This document shows, piece by piece, positions 5,325 through 53,253 of a stretch of 64,000 nt of DNA (position 1 is its first letter; each line of letters opens with the position of its first letter). Origin of the DNA: an uncultured Gammaproteobacteria bacterium (lineage in GTDB: Bacteria; Patescibacteriota; Patescibacteriia; UBA9934; CAZDDW01); contig OZ246408.1 in the NCBI GenBank assembly GCA_965231015.1, positions 83,755 through 147,754 of the forward strand. The letters are read 5' to 3'. The notes under the pieces were generated by a model. The model ran no database searches. It had not been told where the DNA came from and was given only the letters and a program-made list of their open reading frames with translations. A program made the position numbers and the translations under genes.

Positions 5325-5407
5325 AGTGCTTCTAGACTACCTCAATTTTGGGCTAAAGACAAGGCAAACTTCCCCAATTTGTGTTAGGTCTGATTGACAT
5401 ATGGGGA

Positions 5408-5436
5408 TTGACTTTTTGGTCAAAATATGCTATAGT
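5408..5436 (+). promoter_or_regulatory. Promoter module TTGACT-17-TATAGT with the conserved spacer …GGTCAAAATATGC
   Basis: It is a consensus-like sigma70 promoter about 45 nt upstream of the 3D-domain gene and shares the recurrent spacer motif (see findings). Confidence 0.5.
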
Positions 5437-5479
5437 GCACCTCGTTCCGCAGTAAAGCGGAATTTTATTTTATCAATAT

Positions 5480-6037
5480 ATGCCTAAACGCAAGAAACAA
5501 CTTAAAAAGGTATCTAAGTGGAAGAAGTTCGCTAAATTTAGCAAGAAAAATGCTTTCAATTTGGCTCTAATCGGTTTTACTTCGCTTGGTTTAGCCTATT
5601 TTTCACTTCCAAATACCGCCAAGGCTTACTTTGGTGTTTCACCAGAGTTTGATAGCACCTGGGCTGAGGAAATGCGTCTTGAGTTTGAGGTGCTTGAAAA
5701 CCAGTCTAAATCTTACGGCGAGCTTCCGCTTGCCGGAGACGCCAAGCCGCGTTACGAGACCACTGTGCCAACCACTGCTTATACTTCAACCGTGTGGCAG
5801 TGTGATGACACCCCGTTTATTACAGCTTCGGGAACCCATGTTCGTCACGGTGTGGTAGCGGCTAACTTCCTACCGATTGGTACCAAGCTTAAGATTCCTG
5901 AGCTTTACGGTGATCAAGTCTTTATTGTAGAGGACCGAATGAATGCCCGCTATTACAAAAAGATGGACATTTGGATGGAGGACTATGACGAAGCTATCGC
6001 CTTTGGAGTACAAAACTTAACCATTCAGGTTTTCTAA
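5480..6037 (+). CDS. 3D-domain (MltA/YocH-like) cell-wall-binding protein with an N-terminal signal/TM
   Basis: The C-terminus (…TASGTHVRHGVVAAN…PIGTKLKIP…IVEDRMNARYYKKMDIWMEDYDEAIAFG) fits the 3D domain pattern. Confidence 0.6.
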   Translation: MPKRKKQLKKVSKWKKFAKFSKKNAFNLALIGFTSLGLAYFSLPNTAKAYFGVSPEFDSTWAEEMRLEFEVLENQSKSYGELPLAGDAKPRYETTVPTTAYTSTVWQCDDTPFITASGTHVRHGVVAANFLPIGTKLKIPELYGDQVFIVEDRMNARYYKKMDIWMEDYDEAIAFGVQNLTIQVF

Positions 6038-6153
6038 AGATTTGAATGATGTAAAAACGAAAAACTCGTCAGGTATGGCGGGTTTTTCTGTTCTGGTTGT
6101 GGCTTGATCGGATCTGATTTTTATGATAATGTCCCCTCACAAGAATTGTTTTT

Positions 6154-6228
6154 GGCTGCGTGGCGAAGTGGTAACGCAGGGGTCTGCAAAACCTCGATGC
6201 ATCGGTTCGAATCCGATCGCAGCCTCCA
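6154..6228 (+). tRNA. tRNA-Cys (GCA)
   Basis: A cloverleaf was folded by hand: acceptor GGCTGCG/CGCAGCC, anticodon loop CTGCAAA, T-arm ATCGGTTCGAATCCGAT, encoded CCA. Confidence 0.85.
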
Positions 6229-6378
6229 TCCTTCGCTTCATCATATTTTGTTGGTGAAGCGGAGGATGCCCCTCGAGGCTCCGGAGGAGCGAAGTGGGGG
6301 CTTTGATCAGAATAATGAAGCTACGGATGATAAACCAGCATGACAGGGCTGTTTTTTGTTGCTACAATATATAACAAT

Positions 6379-6948
6379 ATGGGAGGAACTAAGAAAAAGA
6401 TTATCGGCCCCGTAATTCGCATCCGCGAGATAGTTTTTGGTTTAGAGGACGGTCTGGTCTCCACGGTTGGAGCTGTGACCGGCATTGCTGCCGGAAGCGG
6501 TAGTACATATGTCGTAGTTTTATCAGGGTTGGTCTTAATTATAGTCGAGGCTCTCTCAATGGGAGCCGGGAGTTACTTGTCAGAGAAGAGTAATCGCGAG
6601 GCTATGTACGCGCGCTACGCGAATGATTCACACATGAAAAAGCATTTGCCGGAACTGTTTCCGGAAACTGACATTAAGGCAGGGTTTGTGATGTGGGCTT
6701 CGTACATGATTGGTGGAATTATTCCTTTGGCTCCATATTTCTTTTTTTCCATCAACAATTCTTATGCACCATCAATTATCGGAACCGCTTTTGCTCTATT
6801 TGGGGTTGGGGTTTGGAAGGCTCGGCACACCAAACGTGATTGGATTAAAAGTGCTCTTGAAATGGTAGTGGTATCGCTTGGGGCAGTAGTGCTGGGGTTT
6901 GTGATTGGGCGCTTGGTGTCAGGCTCTTTTGGAATAAACGTCTACTAA
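6379..6948 (+). CDS. VIT1/CCC1-family (DUF125) putative iron/manganese transporter
   Basis: …EIVFGLEDGLVSTVGAVTGIA… plus C-terminal TM helices are typical of the VIT family. The start was chosen at an internal ATG; the upstream ATG at 6340 is also possible. Confidence 0.65.
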   Translation: MGGTKKKIIGPVIRIREIVFGLEDGLVSTVGAVTGIAAGSGSTYVVVLSGLVLIIVEALSMGAGSYLSEKSNREAMYARYANDSHMKKHLPELFPETDIKAGFVMWASYMIGGIIPLAPYFFFSINNSYAPSIIGTAFALFGVGVWKARHTKRDWIKSALEMVVVSLGAVVLGFVIGRLVSGSFGINVY

Positions 6949-7004
6949 GTCAGTCCGGTTACAGCCTTGAAAAAGAGGCTGTTTTTTGTTAGGATCACTC
7001 TACT

Positions 7005-8201
7005 ATGAAACATGTTTATTTAGATCACGCCGCTACAACCCCGCTTGATCCACGGGTCAAAGAGGCAATGGAGCCGTACATGACGGACCGATTTGGTAAT
7101 CCGTCTAGTTTTCATACTCCGGGCAAACAGGCTAAAGATGACCTGGATGCGGCTCGGGAGCGTATTGCCCGCCAGCTTGGAGTGCGCACAGAAGAGATTA
7201 TTTTTACTTCCGGTGGAACCGAATCTGATAATTTGGCTCTGCTTGGGTTTGCTCGAAAGAATTCTGAACACGGGAAACATATTATTACAACCAAAATCGA
7301 GCATCATGCGGTTCTACACTCTGCCGAGCAGCTGGAGCGGGAAGGTTTTGAGGTGACGTATCTTGAAGTCGATAAGGATGGGCTCGTCAGTGTTGATCAG
7401 GTAATAAAAGCGATTCGTCTGGATACGATCCTCGTAAGCATAATGTACGCCAACAACGAGATTGGAACCGTGGAACCTATTTCAGAAATTGGAAATGCAA
7501 TTGAAAAATATCGGCGCGACAACAAAACCGAGTGGCCAGTTTTTCACACGGATGCCTGTCAGGCCGCGGGCGCACTCGAACTTAACGTTCCAAAACTGCA
7601 TGTCGACATGTTGACGTGCAACGGATCTAAAATTTATGGACCAAAAGGAATCGGGTTATTGTTTAAGAGACGCGAGCTCAAGCTCGAGCCACTTACGTTT
7701 GGTGGTGGACAAGAAATGGGTTTGCGGCCAGGCACCGAGAATGTGGCAGGAGTTATCGGATTAGCCGAAGCTCTCAAGATTGCGGAAGAGGAACGCAAGA
7801 AAGAGTCAGCTCGATTAATTGCCTTGCGAGAAAAATTGATCGCGGGAATTCGTGATAAGATTGAAGGAGTGCGTTTGAACGGTTCAGCAATAGACCGGCT
7901 CCCGAACAATGTAAATATATCGTTTAAAGATATCGAAGGCGAGGCCTTGCTTTTATACCTCGATGCCAAGGGAATATATTGTTCGACCGGGTCGGCGTGC
8001 ACCAGTGCATCGCTTGATCCGTCACACGTGATTATGGCCCTTGGTTTGCCGGCTGAGGTAGCACATTCGGCCATGCGGTTTAGTCTGGGACGGAAAACAA
8101 CTGAAGATGACATTGATTATTTGCTCTCTGAGTTGCCACCACTCGTTGAAAAGATTCGAAAGATTTCCGCCGTTAAGATCGATAAAAAATATTTTGAATA
8201 A
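7005..8201 (+). CDS. iscS: Cysteine desulfurase (NifS/IscS family, PLP-dependent)
   Basis: …LDHAATTP…, …SGGTESDN…, HTDACQAAG and SxHK-type motifs; 398 aa. Confidence 0.9.
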   Translation: MKHVYLDHAATTPLDPRVKEAMEPYMTDRFGNPSSFHTPGKQAKDDLDAARERIARQLGVRTEEIIFTSGGTESDNLALLGFARKNSEHGKHIITTKIEHHAVLHSAEQLEREGFEVTYLEVDKDGLVSVDQVIKAIRLDTILVSIMYANNEIGTVEPISEIGNAIEKYRRDNKTEWPVFHTDACQAAGALELNVPKLHVDMLTCNGSKIYGPKGIGLLFKRRELKLEPLTFGGGQEMGLRPGTENVAGVIGLAEALKIAEEERKKESARLIALREKLIAGIRDKIEGVRLNGSAIDRLPNNVNISFKDIEGEALLLYLDAKGIYCSTGSACTSASLDPSHVIMALGLPAEVAHSAMRFSLGRKTTEDDIDYLLSELPPLVEKIRKISAVKIDKKYFE

Positions 8202-10067: not shown

Positions 10068-10105
10068 CCTTATTATTCCTACGTACGAATAATAAGGTCT
10101 TTTTC
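10068..10105 (+). terminator. Rho-independent terminator of the Fe-S operon (CCTTATTATT…AATAATAAGG stem plus T-run)
   Basis: A 10-bp perfect stem followed by TTTTT. Confidence 0.65.
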
Positions 10106-10119
10106 TTTGTGTCTAGACA

Positions 10120-10148
10120 TTGACAAAAAGCCTAAAATATGCTATATT
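10120..10148 (+). promoter_or_regulatory. Promoter copy 1 of the island: TTGACA-17(…GCCTAAAATATGC)-TATATT
   Basis: A consensus -35/-10 at 17-nt spacing. Positions 10120-10155 are nearly identical to 12750-12785. Confidence 0.6.
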
Positions 10149-10290
10149 TGTATGTTCTCCGTGTTAGGCTTTTGGTCGTATTTTAGAAAATGCCGAGCGG
10201 AGGAAAAGATTTCCTCGCTCTTTACAATAAGGCAAAACCACAAAAAAAAATGTGCGGCGGCAAAAGCCGATCGCACGGAGGGAAACAAAA

Positions 10291-12675
10291 ATGGCCAAGT
10301 CTGCTACCGCAACCACTTTGATAAGCTTAGTGGCGAACATCGCCAACTGGACGAACGACAACCTGGGCGGTCGTATCGCGCGACCGTTCATCGAGAAGGC
10401 CATCCACGCGCTGTCCGCGCAGGGGGCCAAGTTGTCGGCCTCGGCCGTCATCAAAGAGCTCGTGAAGCTCGGCTTCAACCCGGAAGCCGTGCAGGGCTCG
10501 GCGCTCTTCAAGTACGCCGCTCCCACCCTGCTGACCGCAGGTGCGGGCGCGCTGAACGTGAAGGTGCCGGAATCGGTCTTCGGCGGTGATATCCGCCAGG
10601 CCAAGGAGCTCGAGAGCTTCTTGAACAACGTGATCGATCGAGCCGGCGAGGGAGCCTCGTCCGGCATCACCACAAGTGGGGTCGATGATCAGACCATGCC
10701 CGGGGTCACTCCCGGAACCATGGTCTACGGCAAGGCTCACAACATGCCGGGCCTCGCCGGGTACCGGCACCTGGCCATTCAGGGTCAGGGGGACCAGGTC
10801 TCCACGGTTTGTTCGGCCGTGGATCGGTTCTACGAGAACAACGCCTTGCGCGAGCTCATCATGAAGATGGGACTCCGGCGCCTCGACCGTGACACGGACG
10901 TCACGGAGATCGAGCCCCACATGACCTACCACCTCCCCCAGGAGGTCGACCACCTCCCGGACTGCCCCCACTGCCTCGGGCGTCTGATGGGCCTCGAGAG
11001 CGATGAGCTCTCGGGTCCGGACAGTCTGGAGCAGCTGCTCGACACTGAGCAGAAGCGAAAGTGGGCGGCTCTCGTCCGCCATGTGGCAGCTCACGAGCAC
11101 CGCGTGGCTATGATGATCCTGAAGAAGGGTCGCGTTGCGATCCTGAAGCAGGAGGGTCTCGTGGACGTGCTCAAGCTCGCCCTCGATGACATCGAGATCG
11201 GACCGGAGACGTTCGAGAAGGACGCCAGGCGGAAGGTGTTGCCCCACGGCATCACCGGAGCCGAGCATGACCGGACGGGCAACCAGATCGCCCCGTCGGC
11301 TCAGGGCGTCGTGGACGTCTTGTACCTCATGGACGAGGTTCAGGTCGATGGCGTCACCGAGTGGCGTCAGCTGCTCGACGAGTCCGTGGACGGGAACTGG
11401 TGGCAGGCCAAGAAGCGTCAGGCCGCCAAGTTCGTGGCCAACAACGGCGCGTTCGGCGTGGCAGTCCTGGCCTTCCTCGGGGTGCTCATGGGCATCCTGG
11501 TCCTCGGACTGGAGCTCATGTTCCTCGGGGCGGCGGCTCTTGGCGAGACGCTCTACGTCATGAGCTGGATGGGTGGTCCGGACTGGATGTTCGGCAACCC
11601 GATCGTTCCGGGCATCTTGAGCCTGTTCCTGGTCGCGATCGGCGTGGCCATCATGGCCGCTCCGTTTCACCTCCTTGAAAAGATGGTCTTTGGCCTTAAG
11701 AGCCACTGGCCGAGCTTTGACGAGGCAGTGGAGCGACTACCGGCATGGTTGCACTGGCTAAAGAGCGAGCGCGCCGAGGCCGGCACCACGGTGTACCGTC
11801 GCTCCGGGGTGGTCAAGTCACTGGCGCTGACCGTGATCACGGCTCACTTACTGTACGCCGTGCCGGTGCTGATCATCAACCTCGAGGCGTTTTTTTTCTT
11901 CCCGAACGTGCTGGAGGCAACCGAAGTGGTCAGCCGACTGATCGCCTTCCTGTCGCTGGCTATGCTCGGCTTCTGGATGCTGTCCGCCACGCGCGGGTCG
12001 TACCAGGAGGACAAGAATCGCGAAGAGGTTCTGTTGAATCGCCGGGGCGCGAACCGGTTCGTGGCTTTCCTATCGGATTCCGCGTACTCTGCGGTGAGGA
12101 GCTTCAACTGGGGCAGCGCGTTCACCTACGTGCTGTCCATCTGCGTGATCCCGGTCGTTTGGGGGGTCACGAAGATGTCTGGCTGGGCGTCCCCGTCGGT
12201 CACCAACCCCTCGATCATCGCGGGAGCCAACACGGGCTTCTTCACGAAGCTCACCGGTGTGCCCGGAAGCGTGCACCTCGGGGTGTTCGTGGGCATCTTG
12301 TTGGTCGCACTGCTTATATTGGTGGTGGCCGTGAACGTGCGCAACCGCGCCGGCGAGGTGGTGCTCTGGTCCATGATGGGCCTGTGCATCTTTCTGCTCG
12401 TCGGATACTTCGGCATCGGTGTTCCTGGTTTGACCGTGGCCAAGCTCGCCACGGACGTCGGACACGGAGACGGCTTCTTCGAAGCCCCGACGTACGACGG
12501 GATGTATCCCGACAAGAAGGACGAGCGACGCGCCCGGCGCAGTGCTCCGGTCTCGGGATATACCACAACCCCGACGACCGCCAACCCCCCTGTGGTTTCT
12601 AACCCCCAGCCCGGTTCGGATCGATCCGACGAGATCAAGAAGGCTCGTCAGGAATTGGCCGAATATGGCTGGTAG
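10291..12675 (+). CDS. GC-rich island protein A: 794 aa, a ~400-aa soluble N-domain (contains DCPHC) fused to a ~8-10 TM membrane domain and a Pro/Thr-rich tail; function unknown
   Basis: A GGAGGG RBS lies 9 nt upstream of the ATG. There is strong GC3 bias in this frame only. Long antisense ORFs are GC artefacts. No recognisable family motif. Confidence 0.72.
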   Translation: MAKSATATTLISLVANIANWTNDNLGGRIARPFIEKAIHALSAQGAKLSASAVIKELVKLGFNPEAVQGSALFKYAAPTLLTAGAGALNVKVPESVFGGDIRQAKELESFLNNVIDRAGEGASSGITTSGVDDQTMPGVTPGTMVYGKAHNMPGLAGYRHLAIQGQGDQVSTVCSAVDRFYENNALRELIMKMGLRRLDRDTDVTEIEPHMTYHLPQEVDHLPDCPHCLGRLMGLESDELSGPDSLEQLLDTEQKRKWAALVRHVAAHEHRVAMMILKKGRVAILKQEGLVDVLKLALDDIEIGPETFEKDARRKVLPHGITGAEHDRTGNQIAPSAQGVVDVLYLMDEVQVDGVTEWRQLLDESVDGNWWQAKKRQAAKFVANNGAFGVAVLAFLGVLMGILVLGLELMFLGAAALGETLYVMSWMGGPDWMFGNPIVPGILSLFLVAIGVAIMAAPFHLLEKMVFGLKSHWPSFDEAVERLPAWLHWLKSERAEAGTTVYRRSGVVKSLALTVITAHLLYAVPVLIINLEAFFFFPNVLEATEVVSRLIAFLSLAMLGFWMLSATRGSYQEDKNREEVLLNRRGANRFVAFLSDSAYSAVRSFNWGSAFTYVLSICVIPVVWGVTKMSGWASPSVTNPSIIAGANTGFFTKLTGVPGSVHLGVFVGILLVALLILVVAVNVRNRAGEVVLWSMMGLCIFLLVGYFGIGVPGLTVAKLATDVGHGDGFFEAPTYDGMYPDKKDERRARRSAPVSGYTTTPTTANPPVVSNPQPGSDRSDEIKKARQELAEYGW

Positions 12676-12683
12676 GACTTCCT

Positions 12684-12733
12684 GGCCCGGTCGGGACGCG
12701 CAGTAAAATGCGTTGTCTCGGCCGGGTCTTTTC
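12684..12733 (+). terminator. Imperfect hairpin terminator after protein A (GGCCCGGTCGGGAC…GTCTCGGCCGGGTC plus TTTT)
   Basis: A stem with 2 mismatches followed by a T-run. Confidence 0.4.
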
Positions 12734-12749
12734 CGTTTATGCTTATATC

Positions 12750-12778
12750 TTGACAAAATTGCTAAAATATGCTATATT
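12750..12778 (+). promoter_or_regulatory. Promoter copy 2 of the island: TTGACA-17(…TGCTAAAATATGC)-TATATT
   Basis: A near-duplicate of 10120-10148. Confidence 0.6.
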
Positions 12779-12980
12779 TATATGTTCACAATTCATACTC
12801 GAGGGGAAGAGTAAGGCGCTGATTCTTTGTTTAACTGGGTTTTCCGGTTAAATATCCCCTCAAGAATTAGCGCTTTATTCGTCCCATTGAGGACACCAAC
12901 CAGAACCTTTCAATAATAGAACGACGACGGGGGAGGACCCCCAACAATAAAGGGGTTCCACCCCGAAAGGAGATACGGGT
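12779..12980 (+). promoter_or_regulatory. Roughly 200-nt structured 5' leader of the lipoprotein gene (several G/C hairpins; AGGAGA RBS at its end)
   Basis: Hairpins CTCGAGGGGA…TCCCCTCAAG, GGGGGAGGACCCCC and AAAGGGGTTCCACCCC are seen directly. Confidence 0.4.
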
Positions 12981-13751
12981 ATGAGGTACATCCTCATGAT
13001 GCTCGCAACCCTGACCCTGGTCGGCACCTCCGGGTGCAGCACCTACAACACGGCCACTCGCGGTGGCCAGTTCTTCGGCACCGGTGCGGTGGCCGTGCGC
13101 GGCATGGACGTCGCACAGGACATGTGCACCACCAAGGACGGCGAGAGATTGCCGTGCAACCTGTCGGCCGTGAGCACCCCGCACGGGGCCGTGGTCGGCG
13201 CGAGCAACGGCGCCTACTACGGCTACCCGTACAGCGCGGTGCCGTACGCGCCGGGCATGATGCTCGGCGGATCGACCGGCAACCCGCAGCTAGACTCGGT
13301 CAAGTTGTACCGCGCCACCCATCCGGGGGTGCCGTACAACCAGACCGCGGCAGACCTGTCCGCGGCCGGGACGTACCAGGCGGTGCGTCAGGGTCAGATG
13401 ACCCGGGCCGCGGTGGCCGGCAACACCGCCGCGATCTACGATGTCGCGGCCGACCAAGCCGCCACGGACGAGTCCGTGCGCGGCCTTGAGGCGAACCAGG
13501 CCGCCACTGCGGCCGAGGTTGAGGACGTGAATCTGCGTTTGCATCAGAACGCGCAGACGCAACAACGGATGGCCCAGGACATTGCCGGGGCCATCAAGGA
13601 GAACGAGGACCGAGCCAATGCGGCCGGTCAGGCGGCCAGCCTGGCTCTCGAGGTTCTCGACGAGGGTGGGTCGAATGGTTCGGCACTGACCGTGGATCAC
13701 CAGATCGAGATCGCGGTTCCGGCCGGGACTGCGGAGGAGGACGACCGATGA
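12981..13751 (+). CDS. GC-rich island protein B: lipoprotein (lipobox LVGTSGC) with an Ala/Gln-rich coiled-coil C-terminus
   Basis: Signal peptide plus lipobox, AGGAGA RBS, and GC3 bias in this frame. Confidence 0.68.
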   Translation: MRYILMMLATLTLVGTSGCSTYNTATRGGQFFGTGAVAVRGMDVAQDMCTTKDGERLPCNLSAVSTPHGAVVGASNGAYYGYPYSAVPYAPGMMLGGSTGNPQLDSVKLYRATHPGVPYNQTAADLSAAGTYQAVRQGQMTRAAVAGNTAAIYDVAADQAATDESVRGLEANQAATAAEVEDVNLRLHQNAQTQQRMAQDIAGAIKENEDRANAAGQAASLALEVLDEGGSNGSALTVDHQIEIAVPAGTAEEDDR

Positions 13752-14566
13752 AGAAGCTAAACCTGATCGCGGTGGCCTTCGTGGTCGCCACCTGCTGTGT
13801 GCTCCCGGCCTACGGGCAGGGAGGCAACCAGCCTTTCGTGATCTCGGAGTCCACCTGGCAGATGTGCCGGGAGGAGGGGATCACGGTGTACGAGGAGTGC
13901 GTGCTCGCCAAGGCTGCCGTGTCCTACACGGCGGTCAAGGGAGAGCGTGACGAGCTTCAAACCCAGAACGCGCACCTGCGCGGTCAGGTCGCGAATCTCG
14001 AGGACGAGAACGCGCACCTGCGCGGTCGCGTCATCTCGCTTGAAGACGCCCAGAGCAGGCTCGAGGCCAAGCTCGACGACCTGCTCGCCGCATCCGCGAC
14101 CGGACCAGCGCCGAGCCTGACCACTCCGGCCATGCCCGCCGCCGCACCAGTGGCCGACCCGCTTTCGGTCGCCTGGAGCAGCGAGCCGCGCAACCACGAG
14201 TTCGCGGCCCTCACCGGTTTGACCTGGGAGTCGTGCGAAGACATGGGTCTTTGCACGGCGTTCGTGAACCAGTCCGCCTACTCGATCACGATCGACGTGG
14301 GCGGGGTGCGTACGGTCATCGGCCGGTCGCACGGGGTCGCGAGCCTCACTCCGGCGCCAACCACTCATGGCGCCGAGACTCTGGTCGGACCGGGTCAGCG
14401 GGTGTACTTGTACGTCGGAGAATCGAGCTTCGACGCCACGTACACCGCGTACGTGCCGATCCGAGGTACGTTCGTGCCGAGCTTCACAAAGACGGTCACG
14501 AACGTGAAGACCAAGGGGGCCAATCCTTTCAAGGGGATTGGCCGAGGTGGCTGGAGCTCCCTCTAG
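13748..14566 (+). CDS. GC-rich island protein C: secreted protein with tandem leucine-zipper-like repeats (NAHLRGQVANLEDENAHLRGRVISLED) and a C-terminal globular domain
   Basis: The ATGA start/stop overlap with protein B implies translational coupling. A signal peptide is present. The repeat is visible at the DNA level (13963-14040). Confidence 0.68.
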   Translation: MKKLNLIAVAFVVATCCVLPAYGQGGNQPFVISESTWQMCREEGITVYEECVLAKAAVSYTAVKGERDELQTQNAHLRGQVANLEDENAHLRGRVISLEDAQSRLEAKLDDLLAASATGPAPSLTTPAMPAAAPVADPLSVAWSSEPRNHEFAALTGLTWESCEDMGLCTAFVNQSAYSITIDVGGVRTVIGRSHGVASLTPAPTTHGAETLVGPGQRVYLYVGESSFDATYTAYVPIRGTFVPSFTKTVTNVKTKGANPFKGIGRGGWSSL

Positions 14567-14595
14567 CCCTGGTCTTCTTCTCTCCAAAAAAAAAA

Positions 14596-14634
14596 CACCC
14601 CGCAGGGTTCTCTTGCGGGGTGTCTCACTTTTTA
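14596..14634 (+). terminator. Strong rho-independent terminator ending the GC-rich cassette (CACCCCGCAGGG…CTTGCGGGGTG plus TTTTT)
   Basis: A 10-bp GC stem plus a T-run, immediately after protein C. Confidence 0.75.
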
Positions 14635-19338: not shown

Positions 19339-19639
19339 ATTCGGTTAAAAATAGGATTAATTTCGCTTTATAGTATACCTTTTTTGCCTATTTTAGTAAA
19401 ACAAAAATATCCCGAGCAACAAACTTGGAATACTTATCATCTTTGCTATCCAGTGTTTTAATATTTCAGCTAACATTTCGGCATATCTGATGTTTGCCGT
19501 AGCGTAGCAGAGGCAAATATAGGTGAAGGCTCTACAAGAGCCGTAACCAGATATACGCTGTTATATGATGTACATGTTTTCCTTTAATTTCTGAAAGAAA
19601 TTGCTCTTACAAAAGAAAGATCCGATTTTGTTTTTCCGT

Positions 19640-19757
19640 TTTGGGCGAAGGGCAGAGGGGATTAAGGGGTGAATGCCCGAGCCCAAAACACCACTTTCTG
19701 TTTGAGGGAGGGGCAAGAGGGGAATTAAAGGGGTGAATTGCCCCGACCGAAAACATA
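19640..19757. repeat. Two tandem copies of a ~55-nt unit (GGGCARAGGGGAATTAAAGGGGTGAATKGCCCSRRCCSAAAACA) at the left edge of the AT-rich island. On the minus strand each unit reads as a GGGG-loop-CCCC hairpin plus a T-run (tandem terminators)
   Basis: Direct repeat seen in the sequence. Confidence 0.55.
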
Positions 19758-20630
19758 CTATTTCTTGAAATATTTCTTGATAATAGCAATTACATCTTTT
19801 TTATCACTGACTTTCATTAAATCTTGTGTGCTTTCTTTTGCGAAACGATTCAGTTTCGGTAAATTCAGATGACAAGCTCGAATAATTTTATGTTTTGCAA
19901 ATTTAATTAGGCTGGGATCGTTTTTGTTGAAAATACCAAGACGAACAAAAAGTGTTTCGTATGCCATTATTATTGCGAAAAAATAAACAAATGGAATAAA
20001 CGAGAATGTTAATAATGGAGGCAAAATAAAAGTCTTCAAATTTTGTGAAGTCATAATATTCTGAAAATCACCAAAAACTTTTCCAAGTGCAAAAACAATG
20101 AAAAAAACACCAATCAAAGACAGAATAAAATCAAATAACTTTTTTACAGGCAGATACTCTTTTTTTAATTCAGAAACAGCACTCATTGCTACGATAAAAA
20201 CCAAAACGGGAACTAAAATTATTTCCGCTACTAAATTAAATGTGTAGAGCGTTAGAATAAACTCAAGGGCTAAAATGATTTTGAGGTTATCTTTCAAGAT
20301 TTTAATGAAAAATCCTTTTTCCTGATTTGCCTTGTTAGTATTCATGAGTAATACAAACGCAACGGCTAAAAACCAGTAAATCGTATCTTTTAGAAGTGAA
20401 AAATCCCAGATTCCAATTTTAACTAATACTAAAACTGTAAATCCGGTATATACAATCGCAGCAATAATGACAGATAGTATTTTTATTTGGAAAAGAGATT
20501 TTAAAACACCAGAAAAGGATTGTCTGATTTTCTCTTGAGAAAGTATCCAAATTGTCAAAACAAGAAGCCAGAGAATTATTGCTATTTCTCTTGTGTTGAA
20601 TTGTTGAAAAAAGGTCATGAATTTATCCAT
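19758..20630 (-). CDS. Polytopic membrane protein of unknown function (8 predicted TM helices), AT-rich island
   Basis: The 290-aa hydrophobic ORF overlaps the stop of the upstream 517-aa gene by 8 nt. Confidence 0.5.
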   Translation of the reverse strand: MDKFMTFFQQFNTREIAIILWLLVLTIWILSQEKIRQSFSGVLKSLFQIKILSVIIAAIVYTGFTVLVLVKIGIWDFSLLKDTIYWFLAVAFVLLMNTNKANQEKGFFIKILKDNLKIILALEFILTLYTFNLVAEIILVPVLVFIVAMSAVSELKKEYLPVKKLFDFILSLIGVFFIVFALGKVFGDFQNIMTSQNLKTFILPPLLTFSFIPFVYFFAIIMAYETLFVRLGIFNKNDPSLIKFAKHKIIRACHLNLPKLNRFAKESTQDLMKVSDKKDVIAIIKKYFKK

Positions 20631-22176
20631 TCTTTATGTCGTCAAAGAATTTGTGGTAAATTCTATCCAATAAATCAATTTGATAAATCTCATTTCTTCC
20701 AGCGATAATATCTTCCAGTGAATCAAACAAATTCTGTTGTTTGTTTTTTGCTTGCTGGCAAACTAGCTCAAATTCCCAACAGCCAAAAATATAAAAATTG
20801 TCTGACTGTTCTTTCATTTTCTCTTTTATTTTTTCTCGTGCATATTTGTTTACTCCAAACATCTCATCTAAAAACACAACAATGTTGATGATTTTTTGGT
20901 TTTTATATTTTACTTGGCTAACATTATCGGCTTTTATGTGTGTTTCTTTTTTAGCTATTTTATCAACTTCTTTAGCCAAATCTTCGATCAGTTTATTGAT
21001 ACCATTACCATCTTCGTTTTGTATACCAGCTCTTGAATAATTATCTATCTTTCGTTTTTTGCACTCGATCTGAAAAATAAAATCGTCTGAGACTAAAAGC
21101 CAATCGGTTGTTTTCCATTCATTTTTCCCTACTTTGTAAGTTGCTTCTTTGATTACTTCTGCCCTTGTTAGAGCGTCTATATTGTATTGTTTAAAAAATT
21201 CTCCGATATAATCTTCAAAAATACTGCCGATTTCCTGAAGTAATGTTGTTTTGTCACTATTTTCTAATCTTTCGAGAAGCACGTAATATAAGCCTTCAAA
21301 TGTGCCATATAAAAAGTCTGAAATAGACGGAATTACAAATTTTTCGTTTTCCTTTGCGGAATTGGTTTTTATTACAGGGTATCTTTTTAATACGTTAAAT
21401 TCGTATTTTTTAAGTAGCGAATCAGTTATTTCATGTTTTTTATTTTCTTCTACGAATTTATCTGATGATACAGAAAAAATATCGAAAAACTTATTTATGT
21501 TTTCTTCGCTAAGCAGTGGTCTAAGCGGAATAATTGAGGTATTTGTGTAGCTACTCATTAAAAATGAAGTAGCAAATTGTCCGTCCTCTCTTGGGCAATA
21601 ATTGGCGAAAATACAAGTGCCAATTTTCATTGCTTTGAATATTTCTATTCCAAGTGCTGAATCTAATTTCTTCCCAAGCGATGGATTCCGTTCAAAAATT
21701 TTTGAAAAAATCCAATAGTATCTTGCAATAATACTTGAATGAAAACGTAAATAAAACCACTGATGATTTGTGTTGCGAATAACCCATAACCATCCCTTGT
21801 CTGTTCTGTCCTCTTCAGTTTTAATGTGGTTTAATTCTGTCTCCATATTTCCGTACATATAAACCAAATTCGTTAAATCCACATCGTTATATTGTACCTC
21901 TTGCTCTTTGCAATTCAGTAAAATCTGTTTAGAGAGAAAGGAAACAAAATCTCTAGTGAGAGTACCTGCTTTTAATTTAACTTTTGGTGATGCATAAAAT
22001 TCAAATTCAACATTTACATTTACATACACTTGGTTCCCCATTAGGGCACCTAATTTTTGAATCGACATTAAAGAACCGACAAAATCAAAATTTTTGACGA
22101 CATTATTAAAATCATCAACAGTAAAGTGTCTTGAAAATGGAATATCTGACGAAGTTTGAATTTTTATATCGCTCAT
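20623..22176 (-). CDS. Uncharacterised 517-aa protein (candidate defence/restriction component), AT-rich island
   Basis: A long ORF with very low-GC codon usage. The start was placed at the ATG 29 nt downstream of the stop of the DUF262-HNH gene (the upstream in-frame ATG at 22314 would overlap that gene by 110 nt). No recognisable motif. Confidence 0.5.
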   Translation of the reverse strand: MSDIKIQTSSDIPFSRHFTVDDFNNVVKNFDFVGSLMSIQKLGALMGNQVYVNVNVEFEFYASPKVKLKAGTLTRDFVSFLSKQILLNCKEQEVQYNDVDLTNLVYMYGNMETELNHIKTEEDRTDKGWLWVIRNTNHQWFYLRFHSSIIARYYWIFSKIFERNPSLGKKLDSALGIEIFKAMKIGTCIFANYCPREDGQFATSFLMSSYTNTSIIPLRPLLSEENINKFFDIFSVSSDKFVEENKKHEITDSLLKKYEFNVLKRYPVIKTNSAKENEKFVIPSISDFLYGTFEGLYYVLLERLENSDKTTLLQEIGSIFEDYIGEFFKQYNIDALTRAEVIKEATYKVGKNEWKTTDWLLVSDDFIFQIECKKRKIDNYSRAGIQNEDGNGINKLIEDLAKEVDKIAKKETHIKADNVSQVKYKNQKIINIVVFLDEMFGVNKYAREKIKEKMKEQSDNFYIFGCWEFELVCQQAKNKQQNLFDSLEDIIAGRNEIYQIDLLDRIYHKFFDDIKNG

Positions 22177-22204
22177 AACTCTATTTCTGCAATCATGAAA
22201 TTTA

Positions 22205-23374
22205 CTATCTGTTACCCTTTGCCCGATTATGTGTTTTACACAACATCTCACAATTTTTAATGTCACTTTTGCCGCCCTTACTCCAAGCCGAAACATGGTC
22301 GGCGTCCATTTCACTTAAACTCCAAATTTTTGTTTTGTTTACGTCGTGACCGATAGCACAATGCGGACAATTTGATTTACCCTTTTTCTCCGCTTCAGCG
22401 GTTTGTGTTTTATAAACTGCTTTTTTGGTTGCTTCATCAAAAACTCGAACTTCAAGTAATTTTGTATCAACTGAACCTCCGAGAATATATTCAAAAATGC
22501 CTTTGCGCTTTTTAACATACGGATCGGCATAGAGTGTTTGCACCTCAACTGACACTTTCTTGGGATCATATGCTTTCTTATGGTACTGCTCATACAGTCG
22601 GCCCCACTCAAGTCCGCGCATTTCACTTTCAACATCAATAAATACACTGGAAACCCAATCGATGACGCTGTTGAAATAGGTTTTTAGCTCTTTGATATTC
22701 TCGTCGTAGCGATGATGACTCATATAATCACCAATATTCCCCTTACTTACCCAATCAAGGGCGCACTCTAAAAAATCTTGCCGATTTGCGCTGCCTTTTA
22801 CATATGCACTCCATTTTTGGATATTGGCATTTTGACTATTGCTGAATTCAGCTTTTCCAAGAGTAACAAATGGGCCAGAGTAAACTGCGTTGAGTAGTTC
22901 CTGATTGTTAAGTGGTACTCCAACAATATTGATTGTTTTGAACCATTCTTTTATCTCACTTTCGGTTCCTTCGCACTCATAAATAGTTAGTTTTGTTTCC
23001 AAAATCTTGGTTTGTTTGTCTTTTGCCATGCCACCAAAATATTGCTCCATGCCGTTTTCATCTTTGATAGCAAATTTGTCAGTAACAAATCGCCCAAGAC
23101 TGGTAATGCGCTGTTGACCGTCTAAAACTTCGAGATTGTTGTCGCTTACCTTATTAAAATAAATCAATCCTATTGGGTAACCTTTTAGGACTGAATCAAT
23201 AACAGCTATTTCTTTTTTGCCGCCGTCAGAAGCGTAAATATAGTTTCGCTGATATTCAGGCTGAATAGTCAGTTTGCCGGATAAACCGAATAAGCCCTTA
23301 CCTTCTAGCTCGTTATATACAAAGCCATCGCAGATTTCTTTGACAGTAATGGTGATTTGTAAACTTGTTTTCAT
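22205..23374 (-). CDS. DUF262 (ParB/GmrS-like, DGQQR motif) plus HNH endonuclease fusion protein
   Basis: N-terminal …IQPEYQRNY…DGQQR… and C-terminal …CPHCAIGH…[32 protein letters not shown] (HNH). Confidence 0.78.
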
Positions 23375-23375
23375 A

Positions 23376-24566
23376 TTATTGTTTGTTATGTTTGATAAGC
23401 ACCCTTTGATAAACTTTTACTAATAGCCCGTCACGGTTAACAACGCCGCTTGCATTTAAGTCATAAGTTCCTTTTTTTCCGAATTTATCTAAATACGCTT
23501 GTTTACATTCTTCAGTCGTGTACACCCTTGTTTTTAATTTGTACAAATCTTCATTTTCACACATCCCAACAATTTTAAACTGTTCGGGGCTATATTTATC
23601 AAGAATGCTTATCGGCACGCCCATAATGCCATCGAAATCACTCGGAATGTTTTTTACTAACGATACTTCTATCGCGTCATAATTTTCGTACTTTTCAAAA
23701 GGTTTTTTTGTTACGAATTTGATTACCTCTGCTTGTGTCATGAGTGGTAGAGGTTGATGACGGCGACCATGATCAAGGTTAGTGAACCAACGAACACCTT
23801 GCACTCGTGTAACATAAACTTTTTTGCCACTTGCATTTGTTTTGATTTCACGGACTTGCTCCAAATTCGCAATAGCTTCTGGTATCTCAAAAAACATTGC
23901 GCCGGCATTAATTTTGTAATTATTGCCCAACCAAACTTTATTTTCTTTAAGTAATGGGAATATTTCTTTGTATGTTATCGCGTTCAGGTTGCCGATGATC
24001 AAAAACTTTTTATCATAATCAACAAGTTGTTTTATGTATTCTCGAAATAGACTGAATGGTGGATTTGTTACCACAATGTCAGCTTGTTTAAGTAGAGCAA
24101 TAGATTCTTCGCTACGAAAATCACCATCGCCATCTAGCGGAGTCCACTCATTGTCTTTATTTTGCTTAAGCTGTAGAGCAATGTCCTCTAAGTCAAAATC
24201 GCCGTCGCCATCTATGTCGCCTACTTTATTAATAATGAATTTATTTGCAGTTACCTTTCGGCGGCCTTTTGGTTTTGTGAGAGTTTTATCATCGCCAAAC
24301 AATGCTAGTTGCGTATTGGCTACGGGTGATGGTTTATAACTGGTAGTAATAAGCTGTTTTAGTCCGAGCCTGTCAAAGTTGAGTACAAAATATCGAAAGA
24401 AATTGCTTTCAAACGGATCGTCGCAGTTGCAATACACTACCTTGCCTCGGAATACATTGGGGTCGTATTCCAAATAGGCCTCTATTTCTTTTTGAATATC
24501 GGAATATTGAGTATAAAACTCATCATTCTTTGTTCTTTTTGCGTTGGTGAGATTTTTATTCGCCAT
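23376..24566 (-). CDS. N6-adenine DNA methyltransferase (gamma-class-like, NPPF motif)
   Basis: …DEFYTQ… near the N-terminus and …[13 protein letters not shown]… catalytic motif. The stop abuts the start of the DUF262-HNH gene. Confidence 0.78.
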
Positions 24567-24596
24567 AATTTCTAAAGTTTACGTTTTGTATTATAT

Positions 24597-24725
24597 TCAT
24601 TTTCCCCTAATAAATAAACCGTTTCCGGAGCGAAGCGGAGGAAACACCGCTTTATTCCCCTTATCAAATAAATGTTTTCGTAGCGGAGCGAAGAAAACTC
24701 CATATTTCCCCTCTATAATAAAAGA
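24597..24725. repeat. Degenerate tandem repeats (TTYCCCT-WATMAAATAAA…GGAGCGAAG units) between the MTase gene and tRNA-Ser
   Basis: Three related units are seen directly. Confidence 0.4.
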
Positions 24726-24784
24726 AAAACAAAATTGGATTCTTTTTAAGAGCTGGGGCGATAGCCCCAAAAGGAAAACATGTA

Positions 24785-24955
24785 TTTCATATAACGGCCG
24801 GCGGCTATGCGACGTGGTCCGGAGACGAGCTTGCTCGTCGACGGGCCATGTCCGCATAGCTGACTGTTGTGCGATGTCGCGTAGCGACGAGCGCAACAAA
24901 AGGCGTAGCCGCCGGCCGTTGTGGCGAAGGAGCGAAGCGATTTCGCCACAACTCG
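24785..24955. other. GC-rich, highly structured ~170-nt element in AT-rich DNA (a 16-bp long-range stem ACGGCCGGCGGCTATGCG/CGTAGCCGCCGGCCGT enclosing internal hairpins, then an 11-bp hairpin GTTGTGGCGAA…TTCGCCACAAC); candidate ncRNA or recombination site
   Basis: Inverted repeats are seen directly. The strand is unknown. Confidence 0.35.
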
Positions 24956-25011
24956 TTTATATGTGAAGTAAAGTTCGGATAAGGTGTAAAAAATGGAGAA
25001 TATGTGAAATT

Positions 25012-25103
25012 TGGCGGAGGGAGGGAGATTCGAACTCCCGGTACCCTATAAGGATACACCGCATTTCGAGTGCGGCGCCTTCAACCACTCGAGCCATCCC
25101 TCC
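25012..25103 (-). tRNA. tRNA-Ser (CGA)
   Basis: A 92-nt cloverleaf with a long variable arm; anticodon stem CCGCA/TGCGG, loop CTCGAAA; encoded CCA. Confidence 0.85.
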
Positions 25104-45679: not shown

Positions 45680-45833
45680 TCACTAGCGTTCGACATGAAA
45701 ATGATCAATTTACGAATGATCAATGATCAATGAATGTTCAATTTGAAAATTTACAAATTGTAACTTCAATGAAAATTGAAAACTAAAAATTGAAAATTCC
45801 TGTGGCGAGCGGTAGCGAGACACAGACGCGGTA
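45680..45833 (+). other. IVS-1 in the 23S helix-45 region: stem-flanked AT-rich ~100-nt core
   Basis: It replaces the helix-45 tip (the E. coli ~1170 region) and is flanked by GTGTCTCACTAGCG/CGCTACCGCTCGCCACAG-type complementarity. Confidence 0.7.
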
Positions 45834-46492
45834 GGCGAGCGTTCGCATTGCGTTGAAGCAGTATCGTAAGGTCCTGTGGAGCGATGTGAAGTGAGAATGT
45901 TGGCATGAGTAGCAAAAAGACGGGTGAGAACCCCGTCCACCGAAAACCCAAGGTTTCCTGGGCAACGTAAATCGTCCCAGGGTTAGTCGGGTCCTAAGGC
46001 GAGGCCGAAAGGCGTAGTCGATGGACAGCAGGTTAATATTCCTGCACCACGTATTGTGTCCGATGGAGGGACACTTGTTCGAGCTTCCCGCGTCCTATGG
46101 CTATGACGTTGGGCGCTTGGGGATGGATAGTAGGCAAATCCGCTATCCGTAAGTCTCTGAGTGAGCGCGATTCCACCGCAAGGTGGGAAAGGGGAAGGTA
46201 GAATGAGTCTAGAAAAGCTTCTAAGGATTCCACAATATGTGCCCGTACCGCAAACCAACACAGGTGGGTAGGTATAAGAGTACCAAGGTGTACGAGAGAA
46301 ACATTGTTTAGGAACTCGGCAAAACAGCGGCCGTAACTTCGGGATAAGGCCTGGTTTCCCTCGGGAGAGGGAGACCCGCAGCGAAAGATAGCGAGCGACT
46401 GTTTATCAAAAACACAGGTCCCTGCTAAACCGTAAGGTGATGTATAGGGGCTGATGCCTGGCCAGTGTCCGAACGTTAAGGGAGGGGGTTAG

Positions 46493-46644
46493 CCGTGCCA
46501 TGTGAGCACTTAGCACGGAATGATCAATTTATAAATGATCAATGATCAATGAATGTTCAATTTGAAAATTAACAAATTGGAAATTCAATGAAAATTGAAA
46601 ACTGAAAATTGAAAATTCCATGCCGAGGATTCACATGGCATGGT
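46493..46644 (+). other. IVS-2 in 23S domain IV (the hairpin equivalent to E. coli ~1860), with the same AT-rich core flanked by two hairpins
   Basis: It replaces a GCAAG-type tetraloop between …GGGGTTAGC and TGAAGCTC…. The core is ~92% identical to IVS-1. Confidence 0.7.
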
Positions 46645-52875: not shown

Positions 52876-53253
52876 CTATTTGCGCTTCTTAGTAGTCTTA
52901 CGACGCTTAGGAGCGGCTTTTCGTTTCTTTGGAGCTGCTTTACGCTTAGCAGGCTTACGAGTGACTTTGCGCTTTGTAGTCTTTCGTTTAGCAGGCTTGC
53001 GCTTAGCAACCTTGCGCTTCTTAGCTACTTTTTTCTTAGCAACTTTTCGCTTCGCTGGCTTGCGCTTAGCAGGTTTCTTCTTAGAGACTTTCTTTCGCTT
53101 AGGAGCAGCTTTGCGTTTTGCAGGCTTTCGCTTTGCAACCTTACGCTTCGCTGGCTTCTTAGTTACCTTCTTGCGTTTTGGTGCAGCCTTCTTAGCAGGC
53201 TTTCGCTTTTTAGCGACCTTACGCTTAGCAGGTTTCTTTTTCTTTGCTGGCAT
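52876..53253 (-). CDS. Histone H1-like, Lys/Ala/Pro-rich (KPAKRK-repeat) DNA-binding protein
   Basis: 125 aa made almost entirely of PAKRK/VAKKRK repeats; the DNA is a degenerate 15-18 nt tandem repeat. Confidence 0.65.
   Translation of the reverse strand: MPAKKKKPAKRKVAKKRKPAKKAAPKRKKVTKKPAKRKVAKRKPAKRKAAPKRKKVSKKKPAKRKPAKRKVAKKKVAKKRKVAKRKPAKRKTTKRKVTRKPAKRKAAPKKRKAAPKRRKTTKKRK

Follow-up and report, generated by a model that had tools for sequence, protein, structure and literature searches.

A probable integron-like defence cassette downstream of tRNA-Ser in a Candidate Phyla Radiation-type genome

The attC sites of integron cassettes follow a small set of rules: an inverse core box (RYYYAAC) and a core box (GTTRRRY) enclose a palindrome (L''/L'), the site measures about 57-141 nt, and crossover takes place between the G and the TT of the core box (written G/TT below). 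Here, these rules are compared with a block of four genes lying between tRNA-Ser(CGA) and galU in a 64-kb stretch of a Candidate Phyla Radiation (CPR)-type, Uhrbacteria-like genome; the whole stretch is called the window, and coordinates are given in its numbering throughout. We consider it probable that the block is made up of an integron-like defence cassette of ~5.3 kb and a 157-nt cassette lacking any open reading frame (ORF), both located downstream of the tRNA-Ser gene.

Integron cassettes are enriched in restriction-modification (R-M), toxin-antitoxin, and other defence systems (bioRxiv 10.1101/2024.07.02.601686, 10.1101/2024.07.02.601719), and dense defence repertoires have been reported in CPR bacteria (PMC12259885). 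Within an incomplete coverage of the literature, nothing was found that describes integrons or attC sites in CPR/Patescibacteria, and large IntegronFinder surveys may have flagged such sites already. Other described systems are relevant to the genes carried by the block. GmrSD, BrxU, and SspE, which join DUF262 to DUF1524, act alone on modified DNA and belong to type IV (PMC12707154). GAPS1 is a single-protein defence system whose PD-(D/E)xK residues D313 and K328 are essential, with the T7 capsid protein as its trigger and dormancy as the outcome (bioRxiv 10.1101/2023.03.28.534373).

Insertion between tRNA-Ser and galU

The tRNA-Ser gene, recognised by both ARAGORN and Rfam on the minus strand, is a host gene marking the upstream side of the block (Table 1). 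Over 18-27 kb, it is the only Rfam match, and no Rfam family corresponds to the flanking repeats described below. The ORF list of the window contains four co-directional ORFs on the minus strand, the first of which has its start codon 446 bp from the tRNA. In order of transcription, they encode an N6-adenine DNA methyltransferase (MTase), a fusion of DUF262 and an HNH nuclease (DUF262-HNH), a 517-aa protein, and a multi-pass membrane protein, with a 1-nt gap after the MTase, a 28-nt gap after DUF262-HNH, and an 8-nt overlap between the last two genes. GC content is 0.295-0.373 across 20-24 kb, compared with roughly 0.42-0.49 for most of the remaining window (backbone ~0.45). An earlier note, made from the letters of this DNA alone, had placed the four genes, the tRNA, and the low-GC block just where they are found here.

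A GalU scan of species-representative genomes identified the closest relative as L095, a Ca. Uhrbacteria metagenome-assembled genome (MAG) with a GalU 87% identical to that of the window (comparison loci are designated by L and a number). Its gene order PST-Wzy-p204-tRNA-Ser(cga)-galU-SBP-pilin is kept in the window, except for the distance between tRNA and galU, which is 92 bp in L095 and 5,673 bp in the window. This distance is about 110-150 bp in L098 and L099, and about 1 kb in L102. Because the interval is short in relatives, and that of the window is both 5,673 bp long and of much lower GC, the block is an insertion. None of these relatives was found with the same four genes at this place, and the closest ones (L095, L098, and L099) lack the island, which favours the island reading of the earlier note. 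The proposal made there of a horizontally acquired R-M or anti-phage module is borne out by the absence from relatives, the atypical GC, and the presence of a probable R-M-type pair beside a defence-related nuclease. In our view, it is very likely that a discrete mobile defence cassette was acquired here by horizontal transfer.

The earlier note had also taken the neighbouring tRNA as a sign of an island, which raises the question of a classical tRNA-associated island or prophage remnant, formed by a phage-type integrase acting on tRNA-Ser and since lost. Such an origin fits the tRNA adjacency, the atypical GC, and the defence cargo, but an island of this type carries an integrase gene on one side and, on the opposite side, a direct repeat of the tRNA 3' end. 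The block displays no integrase, no phage gene, and no PHROG match beyond generic MTase/HNH families, and repeat searches did not show the tRNA 3' end directly repeated at the far boundary. Between the tRNA and the start of the insertion lie 59 nt, and its other end is about 135 nt from galU, with attC-like boundaries on both sides, and a second copy of the element, in L175, does not adjoin a tRNA gene. The inverted-repeat core pattern of the ends is also absent from IMG/VR. This origin, already disfavoured, is very unlikely, and the tRNA adjacency loses the meaning first given to it.

attC-like sites, cassette boundaries, and end modules

On its galU side, the block ends in an attC-like site, J, of which 11 full copies were found in the fetched loci, all co-oriented with the genes and forming arrays in L015 (three copies), L025 (three), and L021 (two). 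Control loci totalling 1.16 Mb, taken from CPR and other genomes, contained no copy of J. In operon orientation, ATATAAC leads into a 12-13-bp stem; after two variable hairpins come the return strand of that stem, GAAAT, and finally GTT followed by AGCT. Among the 11 copies, AAC is invariant and G(TT) nearly so. The site L025c reads exactly GCCTAAC...GTTAGGC, other copies depart from the canonical boxes at one or two positions (ATATAAC, GTACAAC, GTTGTGC), and L175 has GCG for GTT. Inverse core and core lie 89-127 nt apart. Pairing in the 12-bp stem reaches 94.7%, both partners having changed in 6 of the 12 pairs, and the covariation score of the stem (0.444, versus 0.166 in shuffles) is reached by none of 500 shuffles, while slid controls do not exceed 0.135. 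Insertions and deletions among copies are confined to the two inner hairpins. In the fold of L025c, R'' and R' pair as a stem, followed by an asymmetric internal loop, another stem, and a variable tip; folding is slightly more favourable for the bottom strand than for the top one (-20.9 vs -17.0 kcal/mol).

On the tRNA side lies the ORF-less cassette H, built around a 128-nt GC-rich imperfect palindrome, AAC-GGCCGGCGGCTA...TAGCCGCCGGCC-GTT. Its box CCACAAC is complementary to the cassette start GTTGTGG, and the length of the site is about 137 nt. Its hairpin, with 18-nt arms at 24793-24810 and 24903-24920, has a DNA folding energy of -49.9 kcal/mol (z -6.25), and it gives a weak match to the J covariance model (E 0.0035). 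The degenerate repeats and GC-rich structured element that the earlier note described on this side are, thus, both real. Homologues of H occur twice in L021, one after a J site and the other before the same 5' end module as in the window.

The units delimited by these sites obey a common rule. In nine cassettes (window H-J, window flank-H, L175, L025 attI-a, a-b, and b-c, L015 a-b and b-c, and L021 a-b), 34 of the 36 variable positions among the bases following G/TT are complementary to the inverse core of the site that comes next; for example, ATATAAC of the window J is the exact complement of the cassette start GTTATAT. Complementarity across G/TT is the signature of circular cassettes opened at G/TT, as in integrons. 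On the 3' side, conservation among five loci runs about 90 nt past the inverted-repeat core described below, through J, then stops right after G(TT). Assembly data point to the same positions: in Logan contigs, from assemblies of SRR7048221, SRR7048224, and SRR7048225, ends at 19479, 24794, and 24953 fall 0-5 nt from the predicted cassette boundaries. One contig, L001 (19479-24794), equals the defence cassette to within 5 nt, and the tRNA-side contig ends at 24953. Assembly breaks at unit boundaries are expected if the units occur in several contexts of the community. Core boxes, a palindrome of conserved structure, complementarity across G/TT, and co-oriented arrays separating ORFs are all found, as in attC sites, with the window itself contributing H and J only.

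The half-sites preceding G/TT look alike by eye at the upstream junctions of the window (24952-24967, CACATATAAACGAG), L025 (about 2440-2458, GCGGATAGAGACGAG), and L175 (6850-6862, CGTATATACTGAAG). From this resemblance, which is weak evidence, the shared half-site could be an attI-like or a preferred secondary target.

The mechanism we propose is as follows. A tyrosine recombinase supplied in trans would cut between the G and the TT of the folded attC-like sites, namely J, which closes the large cassette on its 3' side, and H, which precedes that cassette, so that whole cassettes would be excised, inserted, and shuffled. The predicted junction of the circular cassette joins ...GAAATG to TTATATGAAATAC.

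A candidate for such a recombinase is found in L025. Upstream of the array and divergent from it is the gene of a 273-aa tyrosine recombinase, whose reading frame is uninterrupted only if genetic code 25 (UGA = Gly) is applied. A GTTGTAC junction some 95 nt away from the start codon of this gene is attI-like and complements the GTACAAC of the first site. The protein scores 216 bits against a cutoff of 220 for the XerA/integron integrase model, and 198 against 265 for the integron integrase model (in two stretches); it may lack the IntI-specific insertion.

Two of the arrays also inform on cargo. The recombinase and its neighbours (L025 1-2470) are open only in code 25. The cassette ORFs in 2481-7840, which encode a major facilitator superfamily transporter, a GNAT acetyltransferase, a 775-aa N6-MTase, and a membrane protein, are open in code 11 too, and such cassettes would, therefore, be usable across genetic codes. 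In L015 (1-13228), the J-bounded units hold three sets of genes: a 518-aa nuclease together with an AlwI-type restriction endonuclease (REase); a methyltransferase accompanied by two radical-SAM/SPASM genes; and a D12 MTase followed by three ORFs without assignment. Cargo that does not look defensive, thus, uses the same J sites.

The earlier note overlooked that each end of the block repeats the other in inverted orientation, and did not recognise the outermost repeat on either side as an attC-like site. The core at 19557-19636 matches that at 24724-24798 in reverse complement, with one block of 29 nt (90%) and another of 24 nt (83%), and this terminal inverted repeat is the longest inverted repeat of the entire window. 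Inward of each core lie two units carrying a 19-nt motif, GAGGGGAAT(T)AAAGGGGTG, which, with up to four errors allowed, is found only at the block ends, in opposite orientations; in the 3' end module, it is located, on the plus strand, in the loops of the hairpin units. The core hairpin keeps its position and not its sequence (AATTTCTGAAAGAAATT in the left core and TGGGGCTATCGCCCCA in the right one, whereas a related locus has AATCCCGATTGCTATCGGGATT). Inward of its core, the 5' end module comprises two units with (A/G)AGGGGAA motifs, then a TATAAT-containing leader before the ATG of the MTase gene, and would act as the leader and promoter of the cassette, which would then be self-expressed. 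A promoter and terminator scan showed no enrichment and no terminator-like signal. At the 3' end, the tandem hairpin repeats reported earlier are real, with 64-nt spacing and 76% identity. Intrinsic terminators were considered for these hairpins and dropped, as no T-run follows the stems. The flanking repeats had been seen as the bounds of an island: their presence is upheld, and they are now interpreted as recombination sites and end modules of a mobile cassette.

Both modules recur elsewhere. The 5' end module is 95.7% identical over 208 nt to L175 6862-7068 and also precedes an ABC ATPase gene in L021. The 3' end module is 91-97% identical to L175 11457-11653 (91% over 201 nt) and L021 1527-1724, and pieces of it directly follow the 518-aa gene in L015-L018. 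In L175, an unrelated MAG with different flanking genes, the same end modules and inverted repeats enclose the MTase, DUF262-HNH, a 207-aa ORF, the membrane protein (83% identical), and a 180-aa ORF. The gene-for-gene exchange between window and L175 is limited to the ORF between the nuclease and membrane protein genes. Homology detected by blastn runs from 24795 to 19539, and the alignment of J extends it to about 19472.

These inverted ends could also be those of a non-autonomous transposon, in which terminal inverted repeats of ~80-200 nt would be recognised by a DDE-type (or other) transposase encoded elsewhere, with the defence genes as passengers. The longest inverted repeat of the window brackets the block exactly, and the same repeats bracket the L175 copy at a different locus; the subterminal 19-nt motifs, restricted to the ends and inverted, are reminiscent of multiple transposase-binding sites, and the element contains no recombinase. 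Several observations nevertheless speak against transposition. No target-site duplication is seen beside the cores (GATATAC vs CGGCGGC), and no transposase with matching ends is present in any fetched locus. The conservation between loci runs ~90 nt past the core on the 3' side only, through J, and J sites occur without cores, in co-oriented arrays (L015b, L015c, L025a-c, and L021b). Complementarity across G/TT would not be expected either. Overall, we judge a transposon unlikely.

The covariation of the J stem fits RNA as well as DNA, one pair being G-U in 11 of 11 copies on the sense strand. The flanking repeats could then be regulatory or RNA elements (leader, 3' untranslated region, processing site, or small RNA), and the module could have been acquired, and its genes exchanged, through recombination, whether homologous or illegitimate, inside a defence island. 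The 5' module does occupy a promoter/leader position, also ahead of unrelated genes, and the exchange of a single middle ORF between window and L175 resembles recombination between conserved flanking genes. On the other hand, RNA elements leave unexplained the complementarity (34/36) between the start of a unit and the inverse core that follows, the divergence of loci exactly after G(TT), the movement of the ORF-less H as a block, and the divergent recombinase beside the L025 array; neither an Rfam family nor a terminator-like signal is found. This explanation appears slightly less probable still than a transposon. None of the three alternatives, transposon, RNA elements, or tRNA-targeting island, accounts for the G/TT complementarity or the co-oriented arrays.

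The integron-like reading, which we retain, has points that weigh against it. Two-seed jackhmmer searches found no tyrosine recombinase in the 64-kb window. As a complete integron has, beside its array, an intI with its extra domain, an attI, and a promoter, the locus is not a complete integron and would, at best, be a small integrase-less attC-like cluster. A recombinase adjoins one array only, that of L025, and it falls below the cutoffs for integron integrases and XerA. The cassette is unusually large and multi-genic, and its ~200-nt terminal inverted repeats are absent from ordinary integron cassettes; these inverted end modules also travel with other cargo (L021), which the integron reading leaves unexplained. 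Several core boxes depart from RYYYAAC/GTTRRRY (ATATAAC and GTTGTGC, and GCG in L175), and the stem covariation of J fits RNA equally. The activities of the cargo are predicted, and the 517-aa protein is far below the GapS1 family cutoff. Finally, the 14 nt past the crossover of the window J, TTAGCTGAAATATT (19460-19473), are identical to the cassette start after site L015b (L015 6275-6289), so that this junction appears to be something other than a plain joint between cassette and host. The galU-side flank may hold a remnant of another cassette, and the segment 19395-19473 may be either host DNA or such a remnant. In this flank, the promoter scan gave a TTTACT-17-TATACT match at 19400-19372.

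Table 1. Features of the interval between tRNA-Ser and galU, from the tRNA towards galU.
Feature	Position	Strand	Basis and details
tRNA-Ser(CGA)	25012-25103	minus	ARAGORN; Rfam tRNA, 47.8 bits; host gene outside the element
Spacer between tRNA and first cassette	24952-25011	minus	Ends ...CACATATAAACGAG/TT in operon orientation
H, ORF-less 157-nt cassette	24795-24951	minus	Starts TTGTGG; box CCACAAC; ends at the G of GTTATAT
Large defence cassette, 5.3 kb	19474-24794	minus	From TTATAT (after G/TT of H) to the G of the GTT of J
5' end module	24567-24794	minus	Outer ~75-nt core (24724-24794/8), hairpin TGGGGCTATCGCCCCA; inner units; leader
N6-adenine DNA MTase, EcoRI family, 396 aa	23376-24566	minus	DEFYT and NPPF motifs; Pfam PF13651; PADLOC
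DUF262 (GmrSD_N, DGQQR) with C-terminal HNH nuclease, 389 aa	22205-23374	minus	Pfam; PADLOC
Stand-alone PD-(D/E)xK nuclease, 517 aa	20623-22176	minus	Variable cassette slot; from ATG, ORF could extend to 22314
Multi-pass membrane protein, 290 aa	19758-20630	minus	Last gene of the cassette; about 6-8 hydrophobic segments
3' end module	19557-19757	minus	Two hairpin units (19640-19757), then ~80-nt core (19557-19636), hairpin AATTTCTGAAAGAAATT
J, attC-like site	19468-19566	minus	nhmmer and covariance model matches; 11-copy alignment
galU-side flank	19339-19473	minus	~55 nt nearest galU are a promoter region common to relative L095

Cargo genes and other features of the window

Judged from recurrent gene order, the MTase and DUF262-HNH are a two-gene module conserved across phyla. 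The MTase matches Pfam EcoRI_methylase (PF13651) over its full length (3.2e-124), as well as PADLOC MTase_II (1.7e-104). DUF262-HNH is recognised by Pfam as GmrSD_N (8.9e-21) followed by HNH (7e-7), and is covered over residues 9-388 by PADLOC REase_II (9.1e-86), with matches to PADLOC NsnA, PD-T4-2, and HEC-05/06 limited to the N-terminal domain. The comparison with PADLOC proposed in the earlier note has, thus, assigned both proteins, over their full length, to type II MTase and REase profiles. More than 8000 homologues of DUF262-HNH were found, the best 120 of which are 85-100% identical and span CPR lineages, Omnitrophota, and Bacteroidales. A DUF262-HNH with 60-70% identity lies directly downstream of an 'adenine-specific methyltransferase EcoRI family protein' on Moraxella and Enterococcus (E. 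faecium) plasmids, and the annotation of plasmids from Arthrobacter, Rhodococcus, Pseudarthrobacter, and Microbacterium agrees with this pairing. The order MTase, then DUF262-HNH, is also that of the CPR-type genome L175. Adjacent and recurrent MTase and endonuclease genes, which are the mark of type II R-M systems, are, thus, found in the window, Moraxella, E. faecium, and L175.

We read DUF262-HNH as the restriction partner because a nuclease that always travels with an MTase must tolerate its methylation. It is probably the cognate restriction nuclease of the MTase in an R-M-type pair, and would be methylation-sensitive: the MTase would mark host DNA (m6A), and DUF262-HNH would cut unmarked incoming DNA. 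The earlier note had likened this nuclease to modification-dependent, type IV-like enzymes, a view displaced by the full-length REase_II match and the recurrent MTase partner, which point to an R-M component. It does share with GmrSD, BrxU, and SspE an N-terminal DUF262/GmrSD_N domain with DGQQR and a C-terminal His-Me finger nuclease. Nevertheless, its C-terminal domain is a classical HNH (PF01844) and Pfam reports no DUF1524, whereas members of the GmrSD family have DUF262 joined to DUF1524 and act alone; moreover, its gene is invariably partnered by an MTase, the opposite logic to modification dependence. The likeness to type II R-M systems with an EcoRI-family MTase lies in the family motifs of the MTase, the nuclease gene following after a 1-nt gap, and a pair kept across phyla, also on plasmids. 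The difference is in the nuclease, as EcoRI is a PD-(D/E)xK enzyme, whereas that of the window is a fusion of DUF262 (ParB-like NTPase) and HNH.

Sequence searches of the PDB with the MTase and with DUF262-HNH retrieved no solved relative, and no report of this pair turned up in a literature coverage that is incomplete. The plasmid copies of the pair (Moraxella, E. faecium) are without comparable inverted repeats. An IS200/IS605-type or IscB-type element was considered and rejected, the sole hint being a match with E 0.064 confined to the HNH motif.

The 517-aa protein has 68 close homologues, all annotated as hypothetical, mostly from CPR with some from Firmicutes and Thermodesulfobacteriota. 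Its model (predicted local distance difference test, pLDDT, 91) has a restriction-endonuclease-like fold, and E321, D358, and E371-C-K373, invariant in an alignment of 31 family sequences, correspond to a PD-(D/E)xK site. Although 29 of these 31 members match the NCBIfam GapS1 model over most of its length (best match E 7e-19), the window protein scores 49.4 bits against NF047931, compared with a cutoff of 320. A profile search among 1.84 billion representatives gave 1,401 related clusters, mostly of about 500 aa; of ten that were sampled, eight match GapS1 weakly (49-97 bits) and two have no match. A PDB sequence search with the 517-aa profile gave no match. By these scores, the 517-aa protein belongs to a separate family, distantly related to GapS1 and Upx.

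Like GAPS1 and Upx, it is a stand-alone protein of ~500 aa with a C-terminal PD-(D/E)xK site, as predicted from sequence and model, and its homologues are found in defence-island and mobile-element neighbourhoods. It differs from GAPS1 in the scores of its superfamily (49-97 bits vs the family cutoff of 320), and in that its close homologues sit directly after various R-M genes: the closest follow AlwI-type, HinP1I-type, or Dam/N6_N4-type genes, while others adjoin a serine recombinase, a phage-type integrase, or Schlafen/Zeta genes, or stand alone. The 70%-identical 518-aa homologues of L005, L007, and L008 come with neither a J-type site nor matching inverted repeats. By analogy with GAPS1, the protein would be a sensor-nuclease, stopping growth upon detection of a phage component. 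A role as the REase of the MTase was dropped, as the protein occurs beside many unrelated R-M systems and alone.

The last gene of the cassette encodes a membrane protein without any Pfam, NCBIfam, PADLOC, or PHROG family. Its membrane nature, as stated in the earlier note, is confirmed by hydropathy, which does not support the firm number of eight transmembrane segments given there (Table 1). Its AF2 model (pLDDT 70) has no fold match, and its 105 homologues are all annotated as hypothetical. These directly follow an N6-MTase-type R-M gene in 19 of the 33 loci with enough upstream sequence. The upstream R-M genes are of the Eco57I/MmeI-like, HsdM, N6_N4, and D12 types, and elsewhere AbiEii or an integrase is found instead. 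The protein is an orphan that often ends R-M operons. A two-gene system with the 517-aa protein was rejected, a 517-aa homologue being found in 0 of 74 metagenome loci with a membrane-protein homologue. The suggestion that the two proteins are a cognate REase or an effector pair does not hold either, as each occurs alone in many other contexts.

In L064, L065, L066, L068, L072, and L084, proteins of 1,200-1,260 aa, apparently type IIG-like R-M fusions, are followed without a gap by the membrane protein. The composition DUF7149, DUF7814, Eco57I MTase, and TaqI_C was confirmed by Pfam for L064 only. Fusion and membrane protein may be an unrecognised two-gene system.

Elsewhere in the window, a high-GC block (0.56-0.67, in a genome of ~0.45 GC) at 10100-14600 has the look of another foreign island, its composition shifted the opposite way. 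Its products are an 807-aa multi-pass membrane protein and, at 256 and 272 aa, two proteins that look secreted; no Pfam matches are on record. A 52-nt promoter-like direct repeat (81% identical) is found at its start (10106-10157) and inside it (12736-12787). The promoter-like motif TTGAC(N)...AAAATATGCTAT recurs upstream of several genes (5408, 10131, 12750, 28429, and 43982; repeat families D4 and D5), and is probably the strong promoter consensus of the host. Tandem coding repeats of ~27-66 nt, rich in GCTT/AGCA, at 52927-53235 probably encode a Lys/Ala-rich repeat protein on the other strand. A 101-nt direct repeat of 94% identity lies at 45700-46619, with copies 819 bp apart.

Implications and comparison with integrons

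If the attC-like sites are functional, reduced-genome episymbionts would acquire and reshuffle whole defence operons by integron-type cassette recombination, and a cassette mechanism of this kind would help explain how CPR defence repertoires are assembled. It would also extend the host range and design of integron-like systems to large self-expressed cassettes, inverted handles, and an Xer-like recombinase. A bolder version can be formulated, which we offer tentatively and regard as rather doubtful: CPR bacteria, including lineages in which UGA encodes glycine, might own an integron-like system with a short Xer-like recombinase devoid of the IntI domain, self-expressed defence-operon cassettes bearing ~200-nt inverted 'handles', and exchange across lineages and genetic codes, the 517-aa and membrane proteins being new plug-in defence genes.

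The block also provides candidate defence genes, namely the very widespread EcoRI-family MTase/DUF262-HNH pair, the GapS1/Upx-like nuclease family (about 1,400 cluster representatives), and the membrane protein that ends R-M operons. Since cassette boundaries coincide with breaks in metagenome assembly graphs, such breaks could help to find more cassettes of this kind. As a whole, the cargo is partly familiar in kind (R-M pair and GapS1/Upx-like nuclease), and the mobility mechanism resembles a known one.

Compared with integron platforms, the window has no integrase nearby, and the one linked recombinase, that of L025, is Xer-like, sub-threshold for IntI, and encoded in code 25. The cassettes themselves differ from integron cassettes by their CPR host, by the size of the large one (5.3 kb, four genes, with an apparent leader of its own), by the ~200-nt terminal inverted repeats, and by several non-canonical core boxes. 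The likeness lies in several features: the sites fold as imperfect palindromes 89-137 nt in length, whose inverse core ends in AAC and whose core begins with GTT; the apparent crossover is G/TT, and the first bases of a unit complement its own inverse core; the arrays are co-oriented, with ORFs upstream of their site; one array (L025) stands beside a divergent tyrosine recombinase and an attI-like junction; and, as in integron cassettes, the cargo consists of defence genes.

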